From assembly GCA_001823165.1 (NCBI GenBank), contig MHTT01000008.1, positions 1 through 48,342 of the forward strand: a stretch of DNA of 48,342 bases, given 5' to 3'. The stretch is from Candidatus Wildermuthbacteria bacterium RIFCSPHIGHO2_01_FULL_49_22b. Its GTDB lineage: Bacteria > Patescibacteriota > Minisyncoccia > Minisyncoccales > UBA10102. Position 1 is the first letter of the stretch. The number at the start of each line of letters is the position of its first letter. This document shows positions 3,001 to 48,342 of the stretch, piece after piece. Both the position numbers and the translations under genes were made by a program. The notes below the pieces were generated by a model. The model was not told where the DNA came from. It was given only the letters and a program-made list of their open reading frames with translations, and searched no databases.

Positions 3001-4312
3001 CTTAGTTGAAGACGGGGCAGTATGCATTTCGGGCGATGAGCTTTCAGATGAATCAGACGGCCTGTGCGATGCCTCGTCCATAAAGGTCAAGACCGATGTT
3101 CGGGACCTGGACTACGGCATTGCAGAGTTAATGCAGCTTCGTCCGGTGTTCTTCCGCTACAAGGAGGACTTCAAGCCGGACTTTCAGGCAGTGCGGGCCG
3201 GATTCATTGCCGAAGAAATGAACCTGGTTATACCCGAAGTTGTAACGTACGACAGCTACGATGAACACGGAATTCCCAACGGAGATCCTGACGGCATTGA
3301 CTACGGCAAACTGACCGCAGTGCTCACAAAAGCAATGCAGGAACAGCAAAAGCAGATTGAAGAACTGGAGCAATCGCTTCTGACTGTCGCTCAAAACATC
3401 TCTGGCGAACTGGTGAATGTGGACCCGGAATACTTCAGGCAGGGGCTTTCTTCCCTGGGTCTTGCGGTGAACACCAACGGAGTGCTGGAGGTAGACACTC
3501 TCAAAGCAAAAAAGGCGGTATTGGACACCCTTGAGTTAAAAGACCAGCTTACCGGAAAAGTATGGTGCACCTGGATTGAAAACGGAGAATGGCAAAAGGT
3601 GGAAGCAAACTGCGAGCAGATTTCGTACCTGAACGGCCAGCTTGTGATAAACGGGCAGCCCGCGGACTATGACGCCATTGCCGCGGCCAATGGCCTGGTT
3701 TTAGAGCCCCAGCCAGAGGAGCCCGCCCCTGATTCCCTTACCGACACGGTCTCTGATTCCATCTTTGACTCCACTCCCCCCATTATCTCCTTGCTCGGAC
3801 CAAGTTTGCTGGAGATTGAGCTGAACGCAGAATATGTGGATGCCGGAGCTACCGCGACAGATGACGTTGACGGCGACATTTCAGCAAACATTGCAGTAGA
3901 CAACCCAGTGGATACTTCCGTCCTTGGTGCTTATTTCGTCACCTACACTGTGTCTGATGCCGCGGGAAACAAGGCAACGCCAGCGACCCGTACCGTGAAC
4001 GTTGTAGAAGCGCTCTCTGCTCCAGAACCAGCTCTGGAACCAGAGCCAGAACCCCAGGACAGCATGCCTCCGGTCATCACTCTTCTTGGCGAAGCTGTGG
4101 TGGAGCTTGAAGTCGGTGGAATATACGAAGACGCTGGAGCCACCGCGGCAGACGATGTGGACGGAGACATCACTGCAAACATTATTGTCAGCAACCCCGT
4201 AGATACCGCTACTGTTGGCGCCTACACCGTTACCTATATCGTTTCTGACGCGGCCGGTAACGAGGCTGCCCCAGCCGCCCGCACCGTCAATGTCGTACTA
4301 AATCCGATTTAG
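2..4312 (+). CDS. Giant surface/tail-fibre-like protein, 5' partial (frame open to the window edge). Contains GNVGIGT..P repeat modules, a right-handed beta-helix (NosD/pectate-lyase-like) region, an internal peptidase-S74-like intramolecular chaperone domain, a coiled coil and two C-terminal DUF5011/Ig-like repeats.
   Basis: 1432-aa ORF with no stop back to nt 2. Recurrent GNVGIGTASPG/GRVGIGDTTPDA motifs. N/G/I-rich ~22-aa repeats (NNDISSNTNSGI, GNRIASNSSNGIEI, NNYINSNTGDGVRI) typical of parallel beta-helix. DLDYGIAELMQLRPVFFRYKED...GFIAEEMNLVIPEVV...IDYGKLTAVLTKAMQEQQKQIEELE matches the S74 chaperone-of-endosialidase pattern. Two PP(I/V)I(S/T)LLG...YxDAGATAxDDVDGDIxANI...GAYxVTYxVSDAAGN units match the DUF5011 pattern. 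Confidence 0.85.
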   Translation, partial: TSAAVERMRIDSSGKVGIGTATPGALLSVATDGANDAFRIGDNGAGNILTVQNGGNVGIGTASPGTKLEVNLGGVSITAIRALSGGVNNYTAIGIGRTSLEGALAIAAGAGQWSSFATTGDIILRSDTEDLILGARNATGSLRFATGFPDTEKMTILSGGNVGIGDTTPDALLEIVSSGGKNLFALTDTTDGDVFMVNNAGRVGIGDTTPDAALEIVTSGTTDAFHISSTAARDGDLFTITALGNVGIGTASPGVALELGADKSFRITGGTAFPASPSEGQMFFRTDTTQLYVYANAKWQADRTTATKIVAASDSSNEEKADYVADGTNDEVTIEAALAALPAGGGMVFLLEGTYSIGAAIDITQSKVSLVGSGKATILQRAANAIDVIVVGNAGTAYERVIISNLQIDGAKATHTSGANDGIVFNQKITNSEILDTWIHDNAGSGIYLLSGGTSGTANNDNVVRGNKILSNGGYGLVIATYGSRNRIENNDISSNTNSGILFSTGAYNNMAIGNRIASNSSNGIEIGRGEDNMIANNYINSNTGDGVRIAGDGNDTAIIGNYIELNTGDAIDTTTGTQASERHSIVSNLIIDDITLGGTGIHLVSSNRVTGNITINASSNDNYLAGNTISGTITDNGSNNVIQHSSQFKIESTSATVVPLTITADSLAAANGIALSVDGLTTGTGLDISSTSTAGGASGVSKLINLSRSGTNANASHTAYGLYSAVTNTGTTSTNIAGYFSASGATNNYAGIFENGSVGIGDTTPDALLEIVSSGGKNLFALTDTTDGDVFMVNNAGRVGIGDTTPDATLEVVTIGTTDAFHISSTAAGDGDLLTVTALGNVGIGAASPGSKLTIGSGSFDLSSQGSILNVGNSGSDLTDGVWSVARSNNQAQFSVQTFDDAGNTPPVLNLASALSDTIGTYTAVTNTTVLGRIDFQGADGTGFGTGTRIEGVATETFSGSATGAYLSFYTTDTGTNTKDERLRIDQDGGIFMYAMADNLVEDGAVCISGDELSDESDGLCDASSIKVKTDVRDLDYGIAELMQLRPVFFRYKEDFKPDFQAVRAGFIAEEMNLVIPEVVTYDSYDEHGIPNGDPDGIDYGKLTAVLTKAMQEQQKQIEELEQSLLTVAQNISGELVNVDPEYFRQGLSSLGLAVNTNGVLEVDTLKAKKAVLDTLELKDQLTGKVWCTWIENGEWQKVEANCEQISYLNGQLVINGQPADYDAIAAANGLVLEPQPEEPAPDSLTDTVSDSIFDSTPPIISLLGPSLLEIELNAEYVDAGATATDDVDGDISANIAVDNPVDTSVLGAYFVTYTVSDAAGNKATPATRTVNVVEALSAPEPALEPEPEPQDSMPPVITLLGEAVVELEVGGIYEDAGATAADDVDGDITANIIVSNPVDTATVGAYTVTYIVSDAAGNEAAPAARTVNVVLNPI
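500..765 (+). repeat. Intragenic direct repeat, copy 1 (~265 bp) inside the giant surface protein gene
   Basis: accccggacgctctcttggagattgtgtcttccggaggcaagaacc... recurs at offset +1791. About the first 130 nt are identical by eye and the rest is diverged. Confidence 0.9.
2291..2556 (+). repeat. Intragenic direct repeat, copy 2
   Basis: Same sequence as 500-765. It encodes the duplicated module TTPDALLEIVSSGGKNLFALTDTTDGDVFMVNNAGRVGIGDTTPDA. Confidence 0.9.
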
Positions 4313-4338
4313 CTATCCCCACCTAAATCGGATTTAGG
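4298..4338. repeat. REP-like palindrome doublet (family C) immediately upstream of the RayT-like gene
   Basis: ctaaatCCGatttag (4298-4312) and cctaaatCGGatttagg (4322-4338). Each is a 7-bp-arm perfect palindrome, and the two differ only in the central base (opposite orientations). The first copy contains the TAG stop and the last codons (LNPI*) of the giant protein. Confidence 0.85.
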
Positions 4339-4382: not shown

Positions 4383-5099
4383 ATGCCAAGAACAAAACCA
4401 GAAAAGGGAAAAATCTACCATATTTTCAACCGTGGCGTAGAAAAGCGGAACATCTTTATATCCGAAGGAGATCGCTGGAGATTTTTGCAGGGGATGTATT
4501 TGTTTAATAATGAAGATTCCACCACAAATCTTCTCTATCGTCTTGAGCAAAGAAAGGGCAAGATGCATTTTGGCATCCTGCGAGATTATATGCAGCGAGA
4601 AGGCGTTAAGCGCAAGCCCTTGGTACGCATTATGGCAGATTGCCTTAAGCATAATCACTTTCATTTTAGCATTGAAGAAACTCAAGAAAACGGCATTTCC
4701 CGTTTTATGCAAAAGCTGGGTATTGGATATACAAAATATTTTAATAAAAAATATGAGCGCGTAGGACCGCTGTTTCAAGGAAAGTTTAAACTGGTAGAGA
4801 TACAAAGCGATGCGCAGCTTATGTATCTTATTGCCTATATTAATGCGATTAACCCCGGCCAAGAGTTAGAGCCAGAACTAAAATCAGTAGCGCAAGATCC
4901 AGAGCAAATCCTTGAGTTTATTCAACATTACCCATGGAGTACTCATTTGGAGTATTTGGGCAAAAGAGATTCTATTATTATAGATAAAGGTGTTGCGGGA
5001 GAATTATTTGGTACCCCAATTGCTTACCGAAAGTTTGTAGAAGATATTGTAAAAGGCAAAAAAAGTTTTGGTTTGTCAAAGAAAGATTTTCTTGAGTAG
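4383..5099 (+). CDS. IS200/IS605-like Y1 (HUH) transposase of the REP-associated RayT type (COG1943-like)
   Basis: YHIFNRGVEKRNIF N-terminus. HUH motif in CLKHNHFHFSI. GPLFQGKFK and the LIAYINAINP Tyr helix. HYPWSTHLEY tail. Flanked on both sides by the same palindrome doublets. Confidence 0.8.
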   Translation: MPRTKPEKGKIYHIFNRGVEKRNIFISEGDRWRFLQGMYLFNNEDSTTNLLYRLEQRKGKMHFGILRDYMQREGVKRKPLVRIMADCLKHNHFHFSIEETQENGISRFMQKLGIGYTKYFNKKYERVGPLFQGKFKLVEIQSDAQLMYLIAYINAINPGQELEPELKSVAQDPEQILEFIQHYPWSTHLEYLGKRDSIIIDKGVAGELFGTPIAYRKFVEDIVKGKKSFGLSKKDFLE

Positions 5100-5101
5100 T
5101 T

Positions 5102-5138
5102 CCTAAATCCGATTTAGTTTTACTAAATCGGATTTAGG
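5102..5138. repeat. REP-like palindrome doublet (family C) immediately downstream of the RayT-like gene
   Basis: cctaaatCCGatttag (5102-5117) and ctaaatCGGatttagg (5123-5138), in the same CCG-then-CGG order as the upstream doublet. Confidence 0.85.
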
Positions 5139-5153
5139 AGAATTAGGAGAATT

Positions 5154-5969: not shown

Positions 5970-6040
5970 ATTTTCAATCAATGACCCAATTTCACAATTT
6001 TTCAATTGAACATTAAAACATTGATAATTCATTGAAAATT
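5967..6040. repeat. AT-rich TIR-bounded miniature element (family E), copy 1. It fills the comF-dprA spacer.
   Basis: Begins taaattttcaat (the TAA is the comF stop) and ends cattgaaaatt. aaattttcaat and attgaaaatt are reverse complements. It shares the blocks cccctaaattttcaat, caatgacc.aattt and tgataatt...cattgaaaatt with 43185-43271. Confidence 0.7.
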
Positions 6041-6046
6041 AGTGTC

Positions 6047-6952
6047 ATGGCTGACAGTATAACTAAAGAAAGTCCTCGATACCCAACACTACTCGGTGAA
6101 CTTAGGGACGCGCCAAAGCAGCTGTATTATAGGGGAAATTGGGACGGGATTTTTTCCGTCGAAGGCGGATCCGCCTCTGGCGGAGAAAAATGCCTGGCGG
6201 TTGTAGGCACGCGGAGAATGACCAGCTATGGAAAGCGCATGACCGAGCAGATCGTGGGTGAGGTTGCTGCGGCCGGGGTGACCGTTGTTTCTGGTTTTAT
6301 GTACGGTATTGATGCTGAAGCCCACAAAGCAGCTTTGAGAGCCGGCGGCAAAACCATTGCCGTAATGCCCTGCGGAATTGACGTTGTGCACCCAGAATAT
6401 CAGGCGGACTTATATCAAGAGATTTTAGATACGGGCGGCTTAGTGGTTTCAGAATACGAAGGCACGCATCCTGCTTTGTATTGGACGTTTCCACGCCGAA
6501 ATCGCATTGTAGCAGGCCTTTCAAAGGCAACGCTGGTAGTGGAGGCCGGTGAAGACAGCGGAGCATTGATTACCGCAGACCTTGCTAAAAAATACGGCAG
6601 AAAACTCTTTGCCGTGCCAAATCCTTTAACGAGCGCGGTTTCGCAAGGAGTAACGCGGTTGCTAAAAGAGGGTGCAACGATTGCAAGCAGCGCAGACGAT
6701 ATTTTGAAGTATTTTGGGTTTCGTACGCGGAGTAGGGTCAGACCCTACTCGCAAGTAGGGTCTGACCCTACTCCGCAGATTGCAGGCGAACTTGAGCAAA
6801 AGATTATGCAGGTGCTTTTCAAGGAATCAATGCAGATTGACGCGCTTGCCAGAAAACTTAAGATACCGGCAGCGCAGCTGGGAGCCGCAATTTCCATGTT
6901 GCAGTTGGAAGGATGCATAACAGAAGAACAGGGCAAATTATATGTTGTTTAA
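6047..6952 (+). CDS. dprA: DNA processing protein DprA
   Basis: LAVVGTRRMTSYGKRMT, VVSGFMYGIDAEAHKAAL, FPRRNRIVAGLS and a C-terminal winged-helix-like tail. The ORF is open from TTG 6032 but ATG 6047 is the more likely start. Confidence 0.9.
   Translation: MADSITKESPRYPTLLGELRDAPKQLYYRGNWDGIFSVEGGSASGGEKCLAVVGTRRMTSYGKRMTEQIVGEVAAAGVTVVSGFMYGIDAEAHKAALRAGGKTIAVMPCGIDVVHPEYQADLYQEILDTGGLVVSEYEGTHPALYWTFPRRNRIVAGLSKATLVVEAGEDSGALITADLAKKYGRKLFAVPNPLTSAVSQGVTRLLKEGATIASSADDILKYFGFRTRSRVRPYSQVGSDPTPQIAGELEQKIMQVLFKESMQIDALARKLKIPAAQLGAAISMLQLEGCITEEQGKLYVV
6727..6776. repeat. Family B palindromic doublet translated in frame within dprA
   Basis: gcggaGTAGGGTCaGACCCTACtcgcaaGTAGGGTCtGACCCTACtccgc. 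It is two 8-bp-arm hairpin units and the whole 50-mer is nearly self-complementary. It encodes [17 protein letters not shown] in the linker between the Rossmann and winged-helix domains. Confidence 0.85.
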
Positions 6953-8482: not shown

Positions 8483-8845
8483 ATGAGAGTACACAATATG
8501 ATAGGAGAGAGAGGGGAGGAGATTGCGCGCCAGTTTTTGGAGAACAAAGGATATACAATTATTGAGTGCAATTACAGGACAAAGAGAGCAGAAATTGATA
8601 TCATTGCAAAACATAAAAATAAACTAGTGTTTGTGGAGGTGCGAACAAAGCACCGCGAACAATACGGAACCCCAGAAGAAACTATTGATTATAAAAAACG
8701 CATGAGATTGAAAAAGAATGCCGCAGCTTATGTCCATCGAAAGAAATATTATGGGCCTTTTCGCATAGACGCCGTATGTCTGGTACTAGATGAGAACGCG
8801 GGGCTCCAGCGGATTAACCACTATGAAAACATTGTGGAAAACTAG
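8483..8845 (+). CDS. yraN: YraN-family (UPF0102) putative endonuclease
   Basis: GERGEEIARQFLENKGYTIIECNYRTKRAEIDIIAK...VFVEVRT...IDAV pattern. ATG 8498 is an alternative start. Confidence 0.85.
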   Translation: MRVHNMIGERGEEIARQFLENKGYTIIECNYRTKRAEIDIIAKHKNKLVFVEVRTKHREQYGTPEETIDYKKRMRLKKNAAAYVHRKKYYGPFRIDAVCLVLDENAGLQRINHYENIVEN

Positions 8846-8905
8846 GCGAGACCAAGGATTCCTTGGTCTCGCCTAAGAGCTAAAACTAAGGAGCTCATGG
8901 GAACA
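8762..8905 (+). repeat. 144-bp direct repeat, left copy (yraN 3' end, hairpin, and start codon of the next ORF)
   Basis: Identical to 10847-10990 except one mismatch (8790 t versus 10875 c) by my alignment. Contains the 13-bp-stem hairpin ggcgagaccaagg-att-ccttggtctcgcc (8845-8873). Confidence 0.9.
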
Positions 8906-10257: not shown

Positions 10258-10773
10258 ATGACTTCTCTCAAGAAGGGCGGGGAAAAGGAGAATAAAAATA
10301 ATCCCCAGTACCTGCCCACCGATTCAATGAAAAATAATATGAACAAGTTTATCTACAGGCCCATTAAGTTTAATCGGATAACCCAGATTTTCGGAGAGAA
10401 CAAAACAGATTACTCCAAACTTGGTATGCTCGGACATAATGGTCTTGATATGGCTACCTGGAATGGGACACCAATATATCATTCTGGTGACTATATGGGT
10501 TATATGAAGACAGAAATTGATGCAATGGGTGGCATAGGAGTAGATATCTATTCTAATACTCCCCAGATTGATGGAAAACGTATCAAATTGCGTTATTGGC
10601 ACTTAAAGCAAGTTGTAGGGTGGGATGGAAAAGAAGTGCGACCAGGACAACTTATAGGTTTTGCTGATAATACTGGATTTTCAACAGGAGACCATTTATA
10701 CTTTGATTTAAAATGTGTAGATGAGAATGACAAAACATCACGAACAATACGGAAGCCCGGAAGAAACCATTGA
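10258..10773 (+). CDS. M23/LytM-family peptidase-like protein (endolysin-like), 3' end running into the yraN-like fragment
   Basis: GHNGLDM (HxxxD) and NTGFSTGDHLYFDL. The usual HxH reads HLY, so it is possibly degenerate. The C-terminus is read out of the yraN-homologous DNA in another frame. Confidence 0.55.
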   Translation: MTSLKKGGEKENKNNPQYLPTDSMKNNMNKFIYRPIKFNRITQIFGENKTDYSKLGMLGHNGLDMATWNGTPIYHSGDYMGYMKTEIDAMGGIGVDIYSNTPQIDGKRIKLRYWHLKQVVGWDGKEVRPGQLIGFADNTGFSTGDHLYFDLKCVDENDKTSRTIRKPGRNH

Positions 10774-10930
10774 TTATGAAAAACGCATGAGACTGCAGCG
10801 AAACGCAAGAGCGTATATTCACCGAACAAAGTACCGCGGCCCATACCGCATAGACGCCGTATGTCTGGTACTAGACGAGAACGCGGGGCTCCAGCGGATT
10901 AACCACTATGAAAACATTGTGGAAAACTAG
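10722..10930 (+). pseudogene. Displaced, duplicated 3' fragment of a yraN-like gene
   Basis: It encodes ...HEQYGSPEETIDYEKRMRLQRNARAYIHRTKYRGPYRIDAVCLVLDENAGLQRINHYENIVEN, parallel to residues ~53-120 of the intact YraN. The N-terminal catalytic part is absent. Confidence 0.8.
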
Positions 10931-10990
10931 GCGAGACCAAGGATTCCTTGGTCTCGCCTAAGAGCTAAAACTAAGGAGCTCATGGGAACA
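10847..10990 (+). repeat. 144-bp direct repeat, right copy
   Basis: See 8762-8905. The hairpin copy is at 10930-10958. Confidence 0.9.
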
Positions 10991-15562: not shown

Positions 15563-15586
15563 ATGTGTGAAACCTGGTTTCACACA
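15563..15586. repeat. Family D palindrome, copy 1, 11 nt after the stop of the TPR protein
   Basis: atgtgtgaaacctggtttcacaca is identical to 42247-42270. The arms tgtgtgaaacc/ggtttcacaca are perfect reverse complements. Confidence 0.9.
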
Positions 15587-18700: not shown

Positions 18701-18997
18701 CTGGGAGGGAAAGCGCAGTTTGGAGGACAGCGGTTCGGGGAAATGGAGGTGTGGGCGCTGGAAGGATACGGGGCCTCTCACATCCTCCAGGAAATGCTTA
18801 CCATCAAGTCAGACGATGTTCCGGGAAGGGCAGCCACGTATGAAAGCATCCTGCGGGGACAGCCCATTCAAACCCCCAACCTGCCTGCCTCCTTTTCGCT
18901 TTTACTTGCTGAATTGAGGTCGCTTGGCCTTAACATTGAAGTAAAGGAGACGCAACGGGCGGAAAGAAAACAAGAAGACGAAAGAGAAAAATCCTAA
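15764..18997 (+). CDS. rpoB: DNA-directed RNA polymerase subunit beta
   Basis: Full-length conserved RpoB (FMDNENPLAELEHKRRVSATGPGGL, NMQRQAVPL, GRHGNKGVIS, GGQRFGEMEVWALEGYGA). The ORF is open from TTG 15746 and ATG 15764 is preferred. Confidence 0.97.
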   Translation: MPVPQPSFKNFGKSGVHFPLPYLLQVQQDSWSQFWRGDFKELLQEISPIYDHTKKEFELWFVDFKLGEPNYATDLEAKENDDSFEAPLRVKVRLVNLKTKEQKEQEIFLTDFPLMTERGTFIINGVERVAISQLIRSPGAFFTGQEAKVTRKLFGAKIIPNRGAWLEFETENSGFIGVRIDRKRKAPATTLLKAFGLETEEAIQSAFSDVDKGSVSYIAETLKKDTAKGQGEALMEIYRRLRPGDYVTPDTAKELIGNMFFNFERYDLSRVGRWKTLQRLPALKNPKSKTEEEVSLKDRVLKLEDIIEVLREIIRLNNAPGAVPDQIDHLGNRRVRTFAEFLQNRLRVGFMRMERIVKDRMSTLDASMLTPAQLVNPRPVMAMVKEFFTSSQITQFMDNENPLAELEHKRRVSATGPGGLTRERAGFEVRDVQPSHYGRICPIQTPEGPNIGLVGHMASYARINSYGFLETPYFEVRKEKVTERIKYLNAFEEEQEVIAHAGIPLDAKGAIIPDKVEARVRGEAGMAAKKDVTYIDVGPEQSISVATALIPFLRNDDANRALMGSNMQRQAVPLLRAESPLVGTGLEEKVAKDSGLAVVAQEDGVVKEVDARHITVKPATEKSHTYELKNFVRTNQYTSFHQRPIVDVGQKIKKGQVIADGGAIDQGRLALGTNLLVAFISWRGGNYEDAIILSERLVKDDRYTSIHIEDFVADIRETKLGPELTTSDIPNVGEEKLKDLDEEGVVRAGAEVGPNDILVGKISPKGEADLTSEERLLRAIFGEKARDVKDSSLLMPHGKRGRVVSVKVFERVQGHKLEPGVIKRIHVEVAELRKVQPGDKLAGRHGNKGVISFVLPEEDMPFMEDGTPVDIVLNPLGVASRMNIGQILETHLGWAAKKQGYFALTPGLAGANEKDIKAELKAAGLPEDGKVTLFDGRDGTSFPQKITVGMIYMMKLIHMVEDKIHMRSIGPYSLITQQPLGGKAQFGGQRFGEMEVWALEGYGASHILQEMLTIKSDDVPGRAATYESILRGQPIQTPNLPASFSLLLAELRSLGLNIEVKETQRAERKQEDEREKS

Positions 18998-19085
18998 GAA
19001 ATCCTAAATCCGATTTAGAGAAATCCTAGATTTAGTAAGAAATCCTAAATCCGATTTAGTAAGAAATCCTAAATCCGATTTAGAA
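18988..19085 (+). repeat. Tandem array of family C REP-like palindromes in the rpoB-rpoC spacer
   Basis: cctaaatccgatttag at 19003-19018, 19044-19059 and 19068-19083, with a degenerate copy at 19024-19035, at ~24-nt period (aagaaatcctaaatccgatttagt). All are in the CCG orientation. The rpoB TAA stop (18995-18997) lies in a partial unit aaatcctaag. Confidence 0.85.
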
Positions 19086-19125: not shown

Positions 19126-22100
19126 ATGAGGGTAACCGATTTAGAATCCATTCGAATAAAGCTCGCCTCCCCGGACAACGTTTTGGCGTGGTCTCACGGG
19201 GAGGTTACGAAGCCCGAAACCATCAACTACCGCACCCAGCGCGCGGAAAAGGAAGGTTTGTTTGACGAGCGCATCTTTGGTCCGGAAAAGGACTATGAGT
19301 GCTATTGCGGCAAGTACCGCAAGATACGCTACAAGGGCGTGGTGTGCGACCGGTGCCAAGTGGAGGTGACCAAATCCTCGGTGCGCCGCGAGCGCATGGG
19401 CCACATCAAGCTGGCCTCGCCCTGCTCGCACATCTGGTTTCTGCGGGGGGTGCCCTCGCGCATGGGCCTTGTTTTGGATATTCCTTCTGGCGCCTTGGAG
19501 CGCGTCATCTACTTTGCCTCGTATATCATCACCAAGGTGAACGAGGAGGCAAAAGCCAAGGCCGCAGACGAGATTGAGGCGGAATTCAAGCAGAAATTCA
19601 AGAACAAGGGAGAAGAAGAAAAGCAGCAGCTCAAGGGAGCGCGCGACCGGGCCAGAGAAGAGCTCAAGCTCCTCCAGCCCTTGAAAATCCTTTCTGAAGC
19701 AGAGTATCAGAACCTTTCTTTAAAGTACGGCCAGGCCTTTGAGGCGGGAACCGGAGCTGGAACCCTAAGAAAAATATTTCAAGAAGTGGATTTAAAGAAG
19801 CTTCTCAATCAGGTAAAAAAAGACCTGGAAAAGGCGAGTTTGGTGACGAAACGAAAACTCTTGGTCAGGATGCGACTGCTGCAGGGAATGCTGGAGTCCT
19901 CTATTCGCCCCGAATGGATGTTTTTCACCCACTTGCCTGTTCTTCCTCCCGACCTGCGTCCCATGGTGCAGCTGGACGGGGGAAGGTACGCTTCCTCTGA
20001 CTTAAACGACCTGTACCGCAGGGTGATTAACCGCAACAACCGCTTAAAGTATCTGCTGGAAATTGAGGCCCCGGACGTGATTGTGCGCAACGAGAAGCGC
20101 ATGCTGCAGGAAGCCGTGGACGCCCTGATTGACAACTCTATGAGAAAAGGACAACTCACGTCAGCTACCACGGGAGGAAGGCGCCTGTTAAAGTCCCTAG
20201 CGGACATGCTCAAGGGAAAGCAGGGACGGTTCCGCCAGAACCTGCTGGGAAAGCGTGTGGACTACTCGGGGAGGTCGGTCATTGTGGTGGGTCCCACCAT
20301 GAGTTTGAAGAACGTGGGACTGCCAAAGCGCATGGCCCTGGAGCTGTTTAAGCCCTTTGTGATTCAAAAAATCCTTGAACGGGAGTTTGCCTTCAATGTC
20401 CGGGGAGCAAATCGGCTTATTGAACAGGAAACCAACGATGTATGGGCGATTTTGGAAGAGGTTGTCGCAGAAAGAATGGTGCTCTTGAACCGCGCGCCGA
20501 CTCTTCACCGCTTGGGCATCCAGGCCTTTTACCCGCAGCTCGTGGAAGGGGAGGCCATCCGCCTGCATCCTCTGGTGTGCTCCGCCTTCAACGCGGACTT
20601 TGACGGAGACCAGATGGCCGTCCATGTGCCTCTGTCCAAAGAGGCCCAGGAAGAGGCCAGAAACCTGATGCTGTCGGCAAACAATCTGTTAAAGCCCGCC
20701 ACGGGAATCCCGGTGGCCGGTCCCCGCCAGGATATGGTGCTCGGCTGCTATTACTTGACCGGCGCAGACAAAAAACCGCAGGAACAAAAGAAGAGTTTTT
20801 CGTCTCCGCAGGAGGTCCTGCTTGCCATGGAAGCCGGGGCTGTCGGGTTGCGGGACGCCATACGGGTGCGTATGCCAAAGACCTGGGGAGGGGACGGTAT
20901 TTCTCTTGCGGAAACCACGCCAGGCCGCCTCATTTTCAACGAGTCCTTGCCTTCCGGGTTCCCGTTTGTCAACGAACAGATTACCGCAAAAAGAATGGAA
21001 CGCCTGGTGGCGGATATTATTAAGCATTATCCTGCCGAGGAGGCCCCCGGCATGTTAGACAAAATCAAGGAGCTGGGATTTGAATATGCGACCAAGTCCG
21101 GAATCACTTGGGGCATGGATGATCTGACGGTCCCGGAAGAAAAGAAAGAGCTGCTGGGGCAAGCTGCGCAAGAGATTGAAGTCATTGATTCCCATTTTGC
21201 AAGGGGATTGCTTTCCAAGGAGGAGAGGTCGGCTAAGGTCATTGAAATCTGGCAGCGGGTGAAGTCCGCGGTGGAAAAACTCGTGCCGAAATCCCTGCCT
21301 GAAGGCGGTTCGGTCTTTTCCATTATTGACTCCGGGGCAAGGGGTTCTTGGTCCCAGCCCGTGCAGATGGCGGGCATGAAGGGCTTGGTGATTAACCCGG
21401 CAGGCCGCATTATTGAGCTGCCCGTCAAGAGTTCTTTCAAGGAAGGGTTTGACGTACTGGAGTACTTCATTTCCACGCACGGGGCAAGAAAGGGAACCGC
21501 GGACACCGCCTTGAGAACGTCCACGGCAGGGTATCTTACCCGCCGTTTGATTGACGTTGCCCATGACGTGCTGGTAACCTTGCATGACTGCAAAGACACG
21601 GCGGGCATCGTCATTACCAAGGCCGTGGCCCAAGAGCTGGGCCAGAACATTGCTTTAAAGCTTGCTGGCAGGATTTCCCTGCAGGACCTGAAAGGAATTG
21701 TGAAGAAAGGAGGGTACATTGATTGGGACAAGGCCCAGGCAATTGGAGAAGACGAGAAGGTAAAGGAGGTGTGGGTACGCTCGCCTTTGTCGTGCCGCGC
21801 GGTGCGGGGAGTGTGCCAGCTGTGCTACGGATGGGATATGGGCAGGAACAGGGAGATTGAGCTGGGAGCGGCTGTTGGCATCGTGGCGGCCCAATCCATT
21901 GGAGAGCCGGGAACGCAGCTTACCATGAGAACATTCCACACGGGAGGGGTTGCTGGAGGAGGCGACATTACCCAGGGACTTCCCCGCGTAGAGGAAATCT
22001 TTGAAGGAAGGGTTCCGAGCGGCAAGGCCGTCTTATCAGAGCTTGCAGGGAAAGTGGTTGAGATAACTCCAGAGGGCGCGGTGAAGATACAAGCAACAAT

Positions 22101-22716
22101 TGACAATTTACAATTGACAATTGACAAGAAGAATAGTCGTCAAAAGTCAAAAGTCAAGAGTCAAGAGTCAATCGTGGAATACCAGATTCCCGCAAAGCGG
22201 GCTTTGTGGGTAAAGCTTGGAGACCAGGTCGTGAAAGGGCAGCAACTGTGCGAAGGGCACCCGGACCTTCAAGAGATATTTTCCCTCACCGGAAAGGACG
22301 GCGCGGCGTCTTATATCGTCAGAGAAGTGCAAAGTATTTACACTTCCCAGGGCGCTTCCATCCACGACAAGCATATTGAGACCATAGCGCGCCAGATGTT
22401 TTCCCGCATCAGAATCAAGGATGCGGGAGACGCCGCCTTCACGGAAGGGGAAGTGGTAGAAAGGGCCGTATTTCTGGAAGAAAACGCCAAGGTCAAGAAG
22501 CTTTCAAAGAGAGGAGCCGTGGGCTCCCAGCTTCTCTTGGGCATTTCCAAAATTGCCCTCACCACGGACAGCTTTCTGTCCTCGGCCTCGTTCCAGGAAA
22601 CCTCCCGCGTTTTGATTAAGGCCTCTCTGGAAGGCAAGGAAGACCGCCTGCGGGGTCTGAAAGAAAACGTGATTATCGGGAAGCTTATTCCTGCGGGAAC
22701 CGGGTTCAAGAAATAA
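19126..22716 (+). CDS. rpoC: DNA-directed RNA polymerase subunit beta-prime
   Basis: Zn-finger CYCGKYRKIRYKGVVCDRCQVEV, catalytic NADFDGDQMAVHVPLS, trigger-loop region GEPGTQLTMRTFHTGG and C-terminal ASFQETSRVL. Confidence 0.97.
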   Translation: MRVTDLESIRIKLASPDNVLAWSHGEVTKPETINYRTQRAEKEGLFDERIFGPEKDYECYCGKYRKIRYKGVVCDRCQVEVTKSSVRRERMGHIKLASPCSHIWFLRGVPSRMGLVLDIPSGALERVIYFASYIITKVNEEAKAKAADEIEAEFKQKFKNKGEEEKQQLKGARDRAREELKLLQPLKILSEAEYQNLSLKYGQAFEAGTGAGTLRKIFQEVDLKKLLNQVKKDLEKASLVTKRKLLVRMRLLQGMLESSIRPEWMFFTHLPVLPPDLRPMVQLDGGRYASSDLNDLYRRVINRNNRLKYLLEIEAPDVIVRNEKRMLQEAVDALIDNSMRKGQLTSATTGGRRLLKSLADMLKGKQGRFRQNLLGKRVDYSGRSVIVVGPTMSLKNVGLPKRMALELFKPFVIQKILEREFAFNVRGANRLIEQETNDVWAILEEVVAERMVLLNRAPTLHRLGIQAFYPQLVEGEAIRLHPLVCSAFNADFDGDQMAVHVPLSKEAQEEARNLMLSANNLLKPATGIPVAGPRQDMVLGCYYLTGADKKPQEQKKSFSSPQEVLLAMEAGAVGLRDAIRVRMPKTWGGDGISLAETTPGRLIFNESLPSGFPFVNEQITAKRMERLVADIIKHYPAEEAPGMLDKIKELGFEYATKSGITWGMDDLTVPEEKKELLGQAAQEIEVIDSHFARGLLSKEERSAKVIEIWQRVKSAVEKLVPKSLPEGGSVFSIIDSGARGSWSQPVQMAGMKGLVINPAGRIIELPVKSSFKEGFDVLEYFISTHGARKGTADTALRTSTAGYLTRRLIDVAHDVLVTLHDCKDTAGIVITKAVAQELGQNIALKLAGRISLQDLKGIVKKGGYIDWDKAQAIGEDEKVKEVWVRSPLSCRAVRGVCQLCYGWDMGRNREIELGAAVGIVAAQSIGEPGTQLTMRTFHTGGVAGGGDITQGLPRVEEIFEGRVPSGKAVLSELAGKVVEITPEGAVKIQATIDNLQLTIDKKNSRQKSKVKSQESIVEYQIPAKRALWVKLGDQVVKGQQLCEGHPDLQEIFSLTGKDGAASYIVREVQSIYTSQGASIHDKHIETIARQMFSRIRIKDAGDAAFTEGEVVERAVFLEENAKVKKLSKRGAVGSQLLLGISKIALTTDSFLSSASFQETSRVLIKASLEGKEDRLRGLKENVIIGKLIPAGTGFKK
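22097..22172 (+). repeat. Family A heptamer-array hairpin element translated within rpoC
   Basis: caa TTGACAA TTTACAA TTGACAA TTGACAA gaagaat agtcgtc AAAAGTC AAAAGTC AAGAGTC AAGAGTC aat, encoding TIDNLQLTIDKKNSRQKSKVKSQES. Homologous to 36963-37036 and to the reverse complement of 34589-34662. Confidence 0.85.
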
Positions 22717-26169: not shown

Positions 26170-26292
26170 AGATTTTACTGCGTAAAAGAAATTACAAATT
26201 CAAAGCACCAAATTCCAAACGCTTTTGGTTTGTGATTTGTGGTTTTGGTCATTGTAATTTGTTTGTAGTTTGGAATTTGTAATTTGTGATTT
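26170..26292 (-). repeat. Family F intercistronic element (ssb-rpsR spacer)
   Basis: The reverse complement is colinear with the groES-groEL spacer. It has a CA-rich tract (aaatcacaaa...), then gcgtttggaatttggtgct(t/g)tgaatttgtaatttcttttacg(c/a)agtaaaa directly before the ATG. Inverted termini are aaattacaaattc.../...tttggaatttgtaattt. Confidence 0.8.
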
Positions 26293-34382: not shown

Positions 34383-35788
34383 TAAGATAGCGTACCCCGC
34401 TTTTGAGATTTGGTCAATCCGAGGACTTGTTCCCTGAGCTTTCGATGGTAAGAAATGGCAAAGCGGTGCGCTTCGTCCCTGATATGGAGAAACAGATTCT
34501 CAAGGGGCCTCGGCAGGTCTCTCAAAAGCACTGGTCTTGATTTGCCGGGAAAGAACAGCTCGTTTTGTTTTTTTGCCAGTGCCACCATGATTGACTTTTG
34601 ACCTTTGACTTTTGACGATTGACTTTTTTTGCTGTCAATTGTCAATTGTGAATTGCCAATTGTTAGCTCCCGCAGCGCAGAGAGCGCTGCGGTGAGCTGC
34701 CCCTTTCCTCCGTCAATGACCATGAGCTGGGGATAGGGCCATTCGGGGTGCCGGAGACGCCTTGAGAGAAGTTCTTCCATCATAGCATAATCATTTGATT
34801 TACCAGATATGCGAATCTTGTACTTTCTATAGGATTCCTTGAGAGGGGCCCCTTTAAGAAAGGTAACCTGGGAACCTGTTGCTTGTTTCCCTTGGATGTT
34901 GGAGATGTCATAGGCCTCCATGCGGGAGATTCGTTTTCTTGTTTCAAAGAGCTTCTGGAGTTCCTTTTCTATGAGGTTCCAGTTGGTGGAGGGCGCGGTC
35001 TCGCGGGAAAGGAGCCGCGCATGAGAAACAATGCGCTCTAAAGCGAGAAATTGATCTCTCAATCCTGCTGCTTTTTCAAAACCCTGATTCTTTGCGGCCT
35101 CGTTCATTTCTTTTTTCAGTTGTCTGAAAACCGAGGTTCTCTTTCCTTTGAGGACGGCGGCAAGTTTGCGCAGGTTCTTTTTGTATGTTTTCTCATCTGG
35201 GTCGGGTCCCGGGCAGAGATTGAGCTGGCACCAGGAGCAGGGAAGGGAGCCGTGCTTTTTTGCCGTGTAATAGGGGAATACCCTCCGAAGCAATCTCAAT
35301 ACCCGCCTGATTGCCTTTCCTTCCGTGAAAGGGCCAATATAGTTTGTATCTTGTATTTTGTATCTTGTATTTTGTATTTTTTTCTCCTTTTTCATACCAG
35401 ATACCAGATACGAGCTACAAGATACAAGGCGGGGCTGATGCGTCAAAAAGATTCTCGGAAGTTTATCTTTTGTTATTCCAACAAAAAAATACCCCTTGTC
35501 GTCTTTCCACATGACGTTGTATTTGGGCTGCAGCTTCTTTATGAGCTGCGACTCCAGCAACAAGGCATCAATTTCAGATTGAGTTTCAAGATATCCTACC
35601 CTGGTTACTTGGGATGTGAAAAGATTGTCCCGGTAGCTGGGCTGGGCAAAGTGGATTCTGACCCGGTCTTTGATATTCCCCGCCTTTCCTATATACAGCA
35701 CCGCTTTGGGAGAAGCCAAAGCATACACCCCGGGTGCTTTTGGAAGGGTTGAGAGTTTTGATTTGGGAACATACCGAAACTTTTCCAT
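34382..35788 (-). CDS. uvrC: Excinuclease ABC subunit C, short form (no C-terminal HhH2 domain), carrying two in-frame repeat insertions
   Basis: GIY-YIG (GVYALASPKAVLYIGKAGNIKDRV), UVR domain (EMNEAAKNQGFEKAAGLRDQFLALERI) and endonuclease V-like domain ending IRDEAHRFAISYHRKLR. ATG 35788 fits the canonical N-terminus, but the frame stays open to TTG 36091. Confidence 0.9.
   Translation of the reverse strand: MEKFRYVPKSKLSTLPKAPGVYALASPKAVLYIGKAGNIKDRVRIHFAQPSYRDNLFTSQVTRVGYLETQSEIDALLLESQLIKKLQPKYNVMWKDDKGYFFVGITKDKLPRIFLTHQPRLVSCSSYLVSGMKKEKKIQNTRYKIQDTNYIGPFTEGKAIRRVLRLLRRVFPYYTAKKHGSLPCSWCQLNLCPGPDPDEKTYKKNLRKLAAVLKGKRTSVFRQLKKEMNEAAKNQGFEKAAGLRDQFLALERIVSHARLLSRETAPSTNWNLIEKELQKLFETRKRISRMEAYDISNIQGKQATGSQVTFLKGAPLKESYRKYKIRISGKSNDYAMMEELLSRRLRHPEWPYPQLMVIDGGKGQLTAALSALRELTIGNSQLTIDSKKSQSSKVKGQKSIMVALAKKQNELFFPGKSRPVLLRDLPRPLENLFLHIRDEAHRFAISYHRKLREQVLGLTKSQKRGTLS
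34589..34662 (-). repeat. Family A heptamer-array hairpin element translated within uvrC
   Basis: The coding strand reads caa TTGGCAA TTCACAA TTGACAA TTGACAG caaaaaa agtcaat cGTCAAA aGTCAAA gGTCAAA aGTCAAT cat, encoding TIGNSQLTIDSKKSQSSKVKGQKS. Confidence 0.85.
35344..35428. repeat. Family G heptamer-array hairpin element translated within uvrC
   Basis: The plus strand reads TTGTATC TTGTATT TTGTATC TTGTATT TTGTATT tttttctcctttttc ATACCAG ATACCAG ATACGAG CTACAAG ATACAAG. ttgtat and atacaa are reverse complements. It encodes the extra segment ...LVSCSSYLVSGMKKEKKIQNTRYKIQDTNY.... Confidence 0.8.
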
Positions 35789-36229: not shown

Positions 36230-39157
36230 ATGGCACAGGATTTCATTAAAATCAGGGGAGCACGGGTTCACAACCTCAAGAACATTGACGTTGATATCCC
36301 CAAGGGCAAGCTTGTGGTGATTACCGGGCTTTCCGGGTCAGGGAAAAGCTCTCTTGCCTTTGATACTCTGTATGCTGAAGGACAGAGAAGGTACGTTGAG
36401 AGTTTGTCCGCATACGCGCGGCAATTCCTGGGCGTCATGCAAAAGCCCGATGTGGATTCCATTGAGGGCATTAGTCCTGCCATTGCCATTGACCAGAGAA
36501 AGGGAGCTCACAACCCTCGTTCTACCGTTGGGACCATTACGGAGATATATGACTATCTCCGTCTTTTGTTTGCAAGGATAGGAGTTCCGCACTGTCCCAA
36601 CTGCGGCAGGGAAGTCAAGCGCCAGTCGGTTTCCTCCATTGCAGACCAGGTGCAGAAACTTCCCGCCAAAGACGAGATTGCCATTCTTGGTCCTGTAATC
36701 AGGGAGAAAAAAGGGGAGCACCGGGGAGTTTTAGAAGAAATCCAGCGTTCCGGGTTTGTGAGGGCTCGCATTGACGGCATTGTGGAGCGCGTTGAAGAGG
36801 CCCTGGAAAAGGAGTTGGACCGCAAAAAGAAGCATTCCATTGAAGTGCTCGTGGACCGGCTAACCATAGACAAGGATCTGGACCGCCCCCGCCTCATCGA
36901 TTCTTTAGAGACCGCCTTAAAGCTTGGGAAAGGGCTGGTGATTGTGCGGGCACAGTCACCAACAATTGACAATTCACAATTAACAATTAGCAAGAAGAAT
37001 CGTCGTCAAAAGTCAACAGTCAATAGTCAAAAGTCAGGAGAAGACCTGGTCTTCAGCGAGCGCTTTGCCTGCGAGCAATGCAGTATTTCCCTGCCAGAGA
37101 TTGAGCCGAGAATGTTTTCTTTCAACTCTCCCTTTGGGGCGTGTCCTGCGTGCCAGGGATTAGGAGAAAAGCTGGAGGTTGATCCCAAACTGGTGATTCC
37201 CAACCCCCGGCTTTCCCTTGCCGAGGGCGCCATTTTCCCCTGGGCGCACGCTTCCCATAAGATAGGACGCCAGGGATTCTTTTGGTGGAAACTGGAAGAC
37301 CTGGCGAAAGAAAGGAAGTTTTCTTTGAATACTCCAGTAGAGGAGCTTTCTCCTAAAGTCATTAGCCTGGTCTTGCAAGGAGATAGAGGGTTTGCCGCCC
37401 GCAGAAGCGGGCGAGCCTCACCCGCCTCTGAAGAGGCGAGGTGGGAAGGAGTGATTCCCTGGCTGGAACGAAGATACCATGAGACCGACTCTGAATACGC
37501 CAGGGAAGAGATTGAGCAGTATATGATAGAGCGCTTGTGCGAAATGTGCCAGGGAAAGAGGTTGAAACCCGAGGTGGTGGCGGTAACCGTGGGGGCAAAG
37601 TCCATTCACGGGGTCGTAAACCTGCAGCTCAACCGCGTCAAAGAGTTTTTTGGCAAACTCTTCTTGAAAGAGCATGAGAAAAAGATAGCAAGCCCCATTG
37701 TAAAAGAGATTGTGAATCGCCTTCAGTTTTTAATTGATGTGGGCTTGGAGTATCTCACCCTGGCGAGAAAAGCCGCGACCCTGTCAGGAGGAGAAGAACA
37801 GAGAATACGGCTCGCCACCCAGATTGGCTCAAAGCTTACTGGGGTCTTGTACATATTGGACGAGCCCTCTGTCGGTTTGCATGCCAGAGACCAGCATCGC
37901 CTCATTGCGACCTTGCAGCAATTGCGCTCTTTGGGCAATACCATTGTAGTAGTAGAGCATGACCCCCAAACCATACGGTCAGCTGACTGGGTGGTGGATA
38001 TTGGCCCTGGAGCAGGAAAGCACGGGGGCCGTGTCACTTTTACCGGAACGCCAAAACAGCTGCTCAAGTCGCGCACACTTACCGGAGATTACCTAGCGGG
38101 GCGCAGAACTGTTCAGATAAGCAAAGTAGGGTCAGACCCTACTCGGGTGAGTAGGGTCAGACCCTACTCACAGCTGATTGTCCAGGGGGCAACGCACAAC
38201 AACTTAAAGAACATTGACGTTGCAATACCGCTGGAAAGGATGGTGTGCGTGACCGGGGTTTCAGGGTCTGGCAAAAGTTCTCTGGTCAGCGATATTGTGG
38301 CAAAAGCCCTGCTGCAGAAGTTCTACAGGGCAAAGGAAGAACCGGGAGAGCATAAGGCAATTTTAGGCACGGAGCATCTTAACAAGGTGGCGCTGGTGGA
38401 CCAGTCGCCCATTGGCAGAACTCCGCGTTCCAACCCCGCAACCTACACAGGGTCCTTTTCTGTCATACGGGATTTGTTTGCTTTATGCAAAGAGGCCAGG
38501 GTGCGGGGCTACAAGCCGGGAAGATTTTCTTTTAATGTAAAGGGAGGAAGATGCGAGTCCTGCGAGGGCCAGGGGCTAAAAAAGATTGAGATGTACTTTT
38601 TACCGGACGTGTATGTGGAGTGCGAGGAATGCCAGGGACAGCGATACATGAAAGAGGTCCTGGAGGTGGAATACCGAGGCAAAAACATTGCCCAGGTTCT
38701 GGCAATGACCGTGGAGGAAGCCCTGGCGTTTTTCAGAAACATTCCCGCCCTGACAGCGAAGTTGAAGACCTTAAACGACGTGGGACTCTCGTATGTGGAG
38801 CTGGGACAGCCCGCCCCCTCCCTTTCTGGGGGAGAGGCCCAGCGAGTAAAGCTGGCAACCGAGCTTGCAAAGAAAGCAACAGGAAAGACCCTGTACATTC
38901 TAGACGAGCCAACCACGGGTCTTCATTTTGACGACGTGAAAAAACTGCTTCAGGTGTTGGGGGAACTGACGGACAAGGGAAACACGGTATTGATTATTGA
39001 GCACAATCTTGATGTGGTGCGCAATTCGGACTGGATTATTGACCTGGGACCAGAGGGAGGAGAAAAAGGGGGGAAATTGGTCGCAGAGGGAACCCCAAGA
39101 GATGTTGCCAAAATAAAAAAGAGCTATACGGGGCAGTACTTGCGTAAGTTCAGCTGA
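36230..39157 (+). CDS. uvrA: Excinuclease ABC subunit A, carrying two in-frame repeat insertions
   Basis: Two ABC modules ([51 protein letters not shown]), zinc modules (CPNCG, CEQC...[12 protein letters not shown]...CEECQGQRY), 975 aa. Confidence 0.97.
36963..37036 (+). repeat. Family A heptamer-array hairpin element translated within uvrA
   Basis: caa TTGACAA TTCACAA TTAACAA TTAGCAA gaagaat cgtcgtc AAAAGTC AACAGTC AATAGTC AAAAGTC a, encoding [25 protein letters not shown]. Confidence 0.85.
38125..38168. repeat. Family B palindromic doublet translated within uvrA
   Basis: aGTAGGGTCaGACCCTACtcgggtgaGTAGGGTCaGACCCTACt, encoding [17 protein letters not shown]. These are the same two peptide readings as in dprA but in swapped order. 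Confidence 0.85.
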
Positions 39158-39816: not shown

Positions 39817-41586
<1,770 letters not shown>

Positions 41587-42246: not shown

Positions 42247-42270
42247 ATGTGTGAAACCTGGTTTCACACA
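42247..42270. repeat. Family D palindrome, copy 2, between the lemA stop and the htpX start
   Basis: atgtgtgaaacctggtttcacaca, identical to 15563-15586. Confidence 0.9.
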
Positions 42271-42281
42271 TCCTTGAGCTT

Positions 42282-47714: not shown

Positions 47715-47999
47715 TCCGCGGTAGCTCAGCTGGTAGAGCGGCTCGCTGTGAGTAAAGTTGCAGCTTCTTGGAGCAATCCAGGTTGAAAAACGGGGTTAAT
47801 TGCGGGAAACCTAAAGCGAAAGCCAAGGCAATCCGCAGCCAAGGGATGTAACATTTTGCCTTGCAAAATTGTACGTTCAAGGTTCAGAGACTATACGCCC
47901 CGCACCCCTTTGGGGTGATGAGATAGTCCACGCCAGTATGAAAGTATTGGGTTGCGTGTAACGAGATGGTCGTAGGTTCGAATCCTACCCGCGGAGCCA
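47715..47999 (+). tRNA. tRNA-Asn(GUU) interrupted in the anticodon loop by a group I intron. Exons are 47715-47749 and 47959-47999 (CCA encoded).
   Basis: The spliced product is UCCGCGG UA GCUC AGCUGGUA GAGC G GCUCG CUGU|UAA CGAGA UGGUC GUAGG UUCGAAU CCUAC CCGCGGA G CCA. U1-A72, G73 and overall similarity to bacterial tRNA-Asn support the call. One 27-43 mismatch. Confidence 0.85.
47750..47958 (+). ncRNA. Group I self-splicing intron (209 nt, tRNA-intron/IC3-like, no ORF)
   Basis: The canonical core elements are all present: P aattgcgggaaa (~47798), Q aatccgcagc (47830-47839), R gttcagagacta (47882-47893) and S agatagtcc (47921-47929). P1 pairs exon gcugU (47745-47749) with IGS Gcagc (47760-47764), giving a U-G wobble at the 5' splice site. 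The intron ends in G (47958). Confidence 0.88.
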
Positions 48000-48342
48000 A
48001 ATAGGATGATACGAGTTCTCCGCCTCGGGGCTTCGCCCCTCGGCGGGCAAATCGGCGAGAATTTTCCACGACTTTTTGGGTTCAAAGCAAATCGCTTGCA
48101 AGCGCAAAACGCGGTTCGCCGCGCGAAGCGCCGAGGCAACAAACTCACAACATACAATTTGGCTCCGAACGCTGAACGAAATCCGAACATTTTTTAGCGA
48201 AAATCCGAACGCTGAATTTTGACGCTCCGCCCCGCCGCCGCTCGCTACCACTCGCCGCACTACAGAAAAATACTCTTTGCTCTTTTCGTTTTGCGCGCGC
48301 CCAATTTTTTCTTCTAAAAGGAAAAGAATGTTTTGCTTGGCT

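Follow-up and report, generated by a model that had tools for sequence, protein, structure and literature searches.

A translated palindromic doublet, probably of the REP type, in the UvrA linker of a Wildermuthbacteria genome

The stretch of DNA considered here, called the window, is 48,342 nt of contig MHTT01000008.1 from Candidatus Wildermuthbacteria bacterium RIFCSPHIGHO2_01_FULL_49_22b (assembly GCA_001823165.1), and the element in question is a palindromic doublet, designated family B, that lies within its uvrA gene. A second doublet of the same family lies in dprA, and upstream of dprA is a gene for a protein related to REP-associated tyrosine transposases (RAYTs), the enzymes linked to repetitive extragenic palindromic (REP) elements; this gene is bordered by palindromes of another family, designated C (Table 1). 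The first-pass annotation of the window described the uvrA doublet at 38125-38168 as translated in frame just ahead of the second ATP-binding cassette (ABC) module, and held that uvrA carries two unrelated repeat insertions, families A and B, with every catalytic motif preserved. The doublet is present exactly as quoted, in frame, and is conceptually translated without a stop. The closest relatives of both UvrA and DprA are found in Patescibacteria (Parcubacteria group, Wildermuthbacteria and similar; identity up to 85%), and the gene order of the window is that of its relatives, GCA_022563395.1 for example.

Table 1. Repeat families in the window and the genes that carry or adjoin them
Feature	Position	Strand	Remarks
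Two family C palindromes	4298-4338		CTAAATCSGATTTAG; immediately upstream of the RAYT-like gene
RAYT-like Y1 (HUH) transposase gene	4383-5099	+	238 aa; PF01797; HUH motif HNHFHF; Tyr motif YINAINP
Family C inverted doublet	5101-5139		39-nt palindrome; begins directly past the RAYT-like stop codon
dprA	6032-6952	+	Pfam DNA_processg_A aa 9-218, DprA_WH aa 245-301
Second family B doublet	6727-6776	+	Perfect 50-nt palindrome, 23-nt arms, 4-nt loop; in frame in dprA, aa 232-249
B units in dprA	6732-6748 and 6755-6771		Spacing 23 nt
Family A in rpoC	22094-22170		Family A is ~77 nt
Family A in uvrC	34585-34664	-
uvrA	36230-39157	+	975 aa; carries family A, the GC-rich hairpin pair and the family B doublet
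Family A in uvrA	36960-37036		aa 243-270; unrelated to family B
Third repeat-like insert in uvrA, GC-rich hairpin pair	37385-37445 (about)		aa 387-403; hairpins GCCCGCAGAAGCGGGC and CGCCTCTGAAGAGGCG
Family B doublet in uvrA	38125-38168	+	44 nt; aa 632-647; aGTAGGGTCaGACCCTACtcgggtgaGTAGGGTCaGACCCTACt
B unit 1	38126-38142	+	Read VGSDPT; centre base is the synonymous third position of a Ser codon
B unit 2	38151-38167	+	Read SRVRPY; centre A is the first base of AGA; T there gives TGA

Both units of the uvrA doublet are the same perfect 17-nt palindrome, GTAGGGTCAGACCCTAC, and one further base pairs on each side to give a 19-nt unit, AGTAGGGTCAGACCCTACT. The units start 25 nt apart, with a spacer of 6 nt; together they make an inverted repeat whose 20-nt arms, separated by a 4-nt loop, pair throughout except for a single mismatch at the unit centres. 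As RNA, the whole is predicted to fold into one hairpin (-37.4 kcal/mol, z = -7.5), and long single hairpins are likewise predicted for the dprA doublet (-49.6 kcal/mol) and for doublets in two other genomes described below (in mnmA, and at the locus L119). Searched against Rfam, the doublet found merely generic long-hairpin microRNA models, far under their thresholds. When up to two mismatches are allowed, the pattern GTAGGGTCNGACCCTAC matches the window four times (at 6732, 6755, 38126 and 38151), where 100 dinucleotide-preserving shuffles give a chance expectation of 0.00. These four matches are the family B units of uvrA and dprA, two unlinked loci 31 kb apart; no degraded additional copies of the core were found in the 48-kb window.

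The host protein is a UvrA by every feature considered: full-length alignments of the open reading frame (ORF) to solved UvrA structures (2R6F and 9GXK) give E=0, and the ORF retains Walker A (aa 33 and 676), signature (518 and 865) and Walker B (540 and 888) motifs in both modules, both H-loops and six CxxC pairs, so that its ATPase and zinc motifs are complete and the claim of intact catalytic motifs is borne out. The doublet falls in the linker that precedes module II, after YLAGRR, which closes module I, and ahead of the module II start, and there it encodes a Gly/Ser/Pro/Arg-rich peptide. In an alignment of 60 UvrAs from the candidate phyla radiation (CPR), both the length and the sequence of this linker are hypervariable, and in many other CPR UvrAs it holds low-complexity stretches that are repeat-derived in appearance. 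Likewise the dprA doublet falls between the core domain of DprA and its winged helix. The two unrelated insertions attributed to uvrA are both there, and to them can be added a third repeat-like insert. An AlphaFold2 model of UvrA built from 63 sequences is of moderate overall confidence (mean predicted local distance difference test score, pLDDT, 69.5); among the coil stretches that score under 50 are residues 243-270 (family A), 387-403 (the third insert) and 634-644 (family B), and there are further low-confidence segments outside the inserts. The earlier suggestion that the insertions occupy solvent-exposed linkers thus finds all three in coils compatible with exposed loops, in a model that fits the suggestion and is supportive only.

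The other two inserts have features of their own. Family A keeps one frame and one orientation across rpoC, uvrC and uvrA, with the peptide TIDN.QLTI..K...QKS.V.SQ.S, and some other CPR UvrAs (P0031 and P0043) have a family-A-like peptide at the equivalent site. The third insert encodes 17 aa and is missing from most CPR UvrAs.

The way in which the B units are read bears on what is conserved. In every unit TAG closes one frame, so that a single reading phase is open and the two units of a pair use the two remaining frames, which read VGSDPT and SRVRPY; at spacings of 25 nt (uvrA) and 23 nt (dprA) the paired units never share a frame. In uvrA VGSDPT precedes SRVRPY, and in dprA it follows. The SRVRPY frame requires A at the centre, since T creates TGA, and the only break in the inverted symmetry of the uvrA doublet is the centre of unit 2, where a symmetric T would put TGA in frame; from the sequence, this base can be read as a footprint of selection for an open frame. 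What is conserved is the DNA or RNA palindrome and the peptide is a by-product, because the units are read in different frames, their order is swapped between uvrA and dprA, and the arms of sister elements have changed in compensatory fashion. When the encoded peptides were combined into one query and searched against proteins, 576 word-sharing candidates yielded a single match (E=1.7), an uninformative result.

Family B extends well beyond this genome. A scan of public genomes for the 17-mer, one genome per species and 596 Gb in all, found matches in more than 112 stretches; retrieved loci are designated by L numbers (L001-L112 among them), and 25 of those chosen for carrying the B palindrome are low in GC. 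About 140 chance matches are expected for a 16-base pattern in 596 Gb, and the flanks were therefore examined. Of the 123 17-mer matches listed, 85% gain at least one further base pair (A...T) at the ends of the palindrome, where 25% would be expected, and ~89% have A or T at the centre. The extension rejects chance as the origin of most of these matches, which are therefore one real element, AGTAGGGTCWGACCCTACT.

This 19-nt element, identical throughout, is multi-copy in several high-GC metagenome-assembled genomes (MAGs) of Burkholderiales and in Saccharibacteria and Vogelbacteria MAGs (more than 25 loci in the Burkholderiales genome CAVTFQ01, six units in the Saccharibacteria genome CAYJUW01 and four in the Vogelbacteria genome PCSX01); single matches occur in other MAGs of the Parcubacteria group. 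The Burkholderiales copies sit in spacers right after stop codons, like classical REPs. On low-GC contigs the copies are partly intergenic and partly within long ORFs: a tight doublet lies in mnmA (L114; read SRVRPYQVGSDPT), another doublet in recG of a Curtissbacteria genome (L056) and a single unit at the equivalent position of pcm in two genomes (L012 and L052), all in frame; one further uvrA (L017) has a single B unit, also in frame, in the same linker as the window. In JGI metagenomes the exact tight doublet was found at four loci, three of them high-GC and intergenic and the fourth an in-frame copy in mnmA. High-GC carriers of Burkholderiales type include, besides CAVTFQ01, the genomes JADLEZ01, CALDKM01, JAICKU01 and CAWGZZ01.

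A candidate for the machinery that moves such elements lies in the window. The ORF at 4383-5099 matches Pfam PF01797 (Y1_Tnp) with 25.4 bits, where the gathering cutoff is 23, and residues H92, H94 and Y152 are invariant or nearly so among 47 homologs. The best NCBIfam match is ‘REP-associated tyrosine transposase’, below the equivalog cutoff, in 44 of these 47 family members, and IS200 in one. The family is large (11,690 cluster representatives at E<=0.001). A profile of the 47 sequences has ISDra2 TnpA and E. coli TnpA-REP as its top matches in the PDB, weakly (E 0.06-0.3), and PDB searches with the protein as one sequence or with six sequences gave no match; a single-sequence AlphaFold2 model (pLDDT 34.8) is unusable. 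A tblastn search of all loci with an approximate E. coli RAYT query also found no match. The gene has family C on both sides, and the related genome GCA_022563395.1 carries a syntenic ortholog of 68% identity (L122, 8552-9268) flanked by its own variant of C, the arrangement of a single, REP-flanked gene that is apparently inherited vertically. Family C and the forms of family B (B, B' and B'') are built alike: the arms are 8 bp long and covary, one base stands at the centre, and the apex is TC-N-GA. The L122 ortholog has an in-frame TAG. Three further C units occupy the rpoB-rpoC spacer of the window, at 18995-19084.

For family B itself, the linkage to such genes is seen in other CPR genomes. 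When the RAYT-like protein of the window and a hidden Markov model of its family were searched against all fetched loci, homologs appeared in five of the 25 low-GC loci, which had been chosen solely for the B palindrome; by our own estimate, a random 8-kb locus of a ~1 Mb genome would be expected to hold such a gene some 1-2% of the time. At L101, B flanks the RAYT-like gene on both sides, with one unit also within the gene; at L018, the 3' end of the gene is 10 nt away from a B unit; at L075, a covarying variant, GGAGGGTCAGACCCTCC, stands on both sides of the gene, with canonical B inside; at L079 and L107, B lies ~1.5 kb and ~0.7 kb from it. The units inside the genes at L075 (763-779) and L101 (1232-1248), both from Saccharibacteria MAGs, are in frame (LVGSDPT) and at an equivalent position in the two.

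Comparison with sister genomes, which the first-pass annotation had proposed, shows that the occupants of the two linkers turn over. The uvrA linker holds the B doublet in the window; in L119 and L118 it holds a covarying doublet, B' (GCGGGGTCNGACCCCGC), with compensatory changes in both arms and with one of the L118 units decaying; in L017 the B unit stands beside a B-like unit whose centre holds another palindrome. Five further relatives (P0003, P0004 and P0006-8) have no palindrome at the site, and the distance from LTGDY to NIDV is 144 nt in the window and 126-129 nt in relatives with such an ‘empty’ site. The dprA linker holds the B doublet in the window, a C doublet (PKSDLSKTKSDLG) in L121 and a C' doublet in L122, and several further DprA relatives have decayed versions. 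From these sequences, the uvrA copy may descend from one old insertion, or the site may have been hit repeatedly, as a hot spot that is re-occupied. The linkers may be among the few places that tolerate inserts; alternatively, incoming palindromes may prefer existing ones as sites to enter or to convert. The nested palindrome of L017 (6476-6587, MAG JAQBTT01) consists of CCATTGCTTCCCCTGGGGAAGCAATGG at the centre of the B-like unit (AGGG...CCCT).

Taken as a whole, these observations make it likely that the uvrA doublet is a mobile palindrome of the REP type, or a REPIN (two REPs in inverted order that fold into one hairpin), which a permissive linker of UvrA tolerates in frame, because of the four identical units, the linkage to transposase genes, the unrelated host genes, the covarying arms, the permissive linker and the precedent in uvrA genes of other bacteria. 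On this account the doublet would be a REP-type element in its dimeric, hairpin-forming state and a member of a short selfish palindrome family; the family would depend for its spread on a RAYT-like tyrosine transposase of the HUH/Y1 type, with single-stranded hairpins as its substrate; one copy would have become fixed in the flexible linker between the UvrA ABC modules; and the added peptide, being harmless there, would have been kept and translated as a passenger. Both the transposition of B by a RAYT-like enzyme and the neutrality of the doublet for UvrA are what we infer from these comparisons.

The precedent comes from the REPs that begin with GTAG, surveyed by Di Nocera, De Gregorio and Rocco in 2013 in a set that includes the Stenotrophomonas SMAG elements (PMC3733652). 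These are mostly intergenic and linked to RAYTs, and two units, head-to-head or tail-to-tail, often make up a dimer with a single common hairpin; in several species some lie wholly within ORFs, more than half of such inserts being dimers or groups and many being in replication and repair genes (PMC3733652). A Thioalkalivibrio uvrA has two REP dimers, and both uvrA genes of Opitutus terrae have double REP inserts (PMC3733652); the kind of insertion seen here is therefore already known, and the phylum is new. No description of REPs or RAYTs for Patescibacteria was found in the literature searched. Family B resembles the GTAG REPs in its palindromic units starting with GTAG, its inverted dimers, its intergenic copies after stop codons, its intragenic dimers in repair genes and its link to RAYT-like genes. 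It differs in the dimer spacer of just 3-7 nt, in the one-base centre, in a host outside the surveyed phyla, and in the size of the unit, a perfect palindrome of 17-21 nt at the short end of the ~20-40 bp range of REPs.

Other known systems share parts of this picture. REPIN-RAYT systems (Bertels and Rainey 2011, PMC3116915; Bertels et al. 2017, PMC5581495) likewise combine an inverted REP doublet that forms a hairpin with a single Y1 gene flanked by its own REPs, a gene that in the window is syntenic with that of a relative and apparently inherited vertically; the B doublet, at 41-51 nt, is far shorter than the REPINs of Pseudomonas. The TnpA proteins of IS200/IS605 insertion sequences (IS608, ISDra2) are also HUH/Y1 enzymes that recognize subterminal DNA hairpins, which guide their single-strand transposition, and the weak PDB profile matches include ISDra2 TnpA, whereas here the enzyme gene lies outside any multi-copy insertion sequence and the hairpins are dispersed alone. 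The Rickettsia palindromic elements (Ogata et al. 2000) are in-frame, translated palindromes in conserved genes of a reduced genome, placed in surface loops with function kept; they are ~100-150 bp long, unrelated in sequence, found in Alphaproteobacteria and have no dedicated transposase known. At 44 nt and in an unrelated host phylum, the uvrA doublet is not one of them, and only the in-frame, translated behavior is common to both.

Several observations weigh against the REP interpretation. Family B is seen at merely two loci in 48 kb of this genome. No transposase cognate to B lies in the window, whose RAYT-like gene has C on both sides, and the protein it encodes is distant from characterized RAYTs, with 17.9 bits against the NCBIfam REP-associated tyrosine transposase equivalog, whose cutoff is 80; the high-GC loci that carry B gave no RAYT-like gene. 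The canonical GTAG tag is unpaired and stands at one end, whereas B has GTAG at one end and a mirrored CTAC at the other, both base-paired within the stem, and the sister variants read GCGG and GGAG. No site has turned up that is filled in one close strain and empty in another; the closest relatives of UvrA are 81-85% identical. Finally, the net gain from the doublet is 5-6 aa in UvrA and just ~3-5 aa in DprA, a poor fit to clean insertion. The word ‘inserted’ in the first-pass annotation therefore needs qualification: a doublet does occupy the linker site, but with so small a net gain it is not a simple 44-nt addition.

A different perspective supposes that the hairpin itself is under selection, as a stable stem-loop in the mRNA at a domain boundary, whether by pausing the ribosome for domain-wise folding or as an RNase or stability signal; any palindrome family would then serve, and families would replace each other. 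The great predicted stability of the hairpins (-37 to -50 kcal/mol), the perfect, undecayed units of the window, the succession of B, C and C' in the dprA linker and the occupation of the uvrA linker by B, by B' or by B with another palindrome all accord with this idea. It is nevertheless an improbable account. Many close relatives do without a palindrome at these sites, and one L118 unit is decaying; the copies in mnmA, recG and pcm lie in loops within domains and not at boundaries; the element is common in intergenic DNA as well; and a permissive site with a selection filter accounts for the reuse of the linkers without any function.

A further perspective, which we hold to be equally doubtful, dispenses with mobility: an old linker would have been made palindromic by template switching or hairpin-templated repair, and its copies homogenized by gene conversion. 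In quasipalindrome mutagenesis, template-switch correction yields perfect palindromes; the small net change in length against relatives and the related doublets at the orthologous site of sister genomes also suit such an origin. It fails to explain why identical 19-21-nt units stand in two unlinked genes 31 kb apart, why the element recurs in many genes and phyla, and why it directly flanks RAYT-like genes; gene conversion, moreover, would still require a dispersed family to act as donor.

That the palindrome might be a DNA uptake sequence, like those of Neisseria, or a site bound by some protein and concentrated in genes that maintain the genome, is suggested by the nature of the hosts (uvrA, dprA and recG are genes of genome maintenance or competence) and by the competence genes that Patescibacteria encode, dprA and a ComF-like gene being present in the window itself. 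Known DNA uptake sequences occur at a density of roughly one per kb, and family B has about one locus per 24 kb; on this copy density the idea is rejected, and, with a palindrome whose arms covary and that is physically tied to Y1 transposase genes, it must be thought very improbable. An assembly or binning artefact, for which the metagenomic source and the ability of palindromes to seed misassemblies might speak, is the least credible reading of all and is rejected, since an identical UvrA (P0001, with six member sequences) and a 99%-identical DprA (P0122) are on record independently, doublets included, and the ORFs stay in frame and collinear with their homologs on both sides.

Returning to the REP interpretation, it can be carried a step further. 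REP doublets in Patescibacteria may home into, or replace, palindromes already present, by hairpin-targeted insertion carried out by the large, uncharacterized RAYT-like clade; this is an unlikely elaboration, put forward because the linkers have been occupied serially (by B, B', C and C') and because palindromes are found nested in others, as in L017. Two companion readings are offered as unsupported conjectures: that selection for a stable mRNA hairpin may act inside long multidomain genes, and that one REP-RAYT system may have spread horizontally across phyla, so accounting for the identical 19-nt element of CPR and Burkholderiales genomes.

If the doublet is of the REP type, the world of REPs and RAYTs, together with translated palindromes in core genes of the kind seen in Rickettsia, now extends to the tiny genomes of CPR bacteria. 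Such inserts inflate and diversify the linkers of CPR proteins; alignments, phylogenies and domain annotation can be led astray by them, and they serve as strain-level markers. With a RAYT-like gene and its flanking repeats, and with in-frame copies of a sister repeat, the window makes a compact test system, suited to asking how these elements move and why repair genes are so often hit.

The window is rich in other repeats. An identical 33-nt perfect palindrome, TAGGCGAGACCAAGGATTCCTTGGTCTCGCCTA, occurs at 8843-8875 and 10928-10960, within a 261-nt direct repeat (8645-8905 and 10730-10990; 87% identical), and a shared palindrome of 24-25 nt, ATGTGTGAAACCTGGTTTCACACAT, lies at two gene ends (15563-15586 and 42247-42271). 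The recA-ssb and groES-groEL spacers share 116 nt in inverted orientation (26173-26288 and 39831-39946; 86% complementary). A tRNA-like gene at 47717-48008, for which ARAGORN made no tRNA call, is interrupted by a group I intron (47740-47950; Rfam RF00028, 92.5 bits); its acceptor and T arm are visible, and it ends in GCCA. At the other end of the window, 14-4312 encodes a 1432-aa surface-type protein with beta-helix, Ig-like and Peptidase_S74 domains, and within this gene 286 nt recur as a direct repeat (478-763 and 2269-2554; 90% identical).

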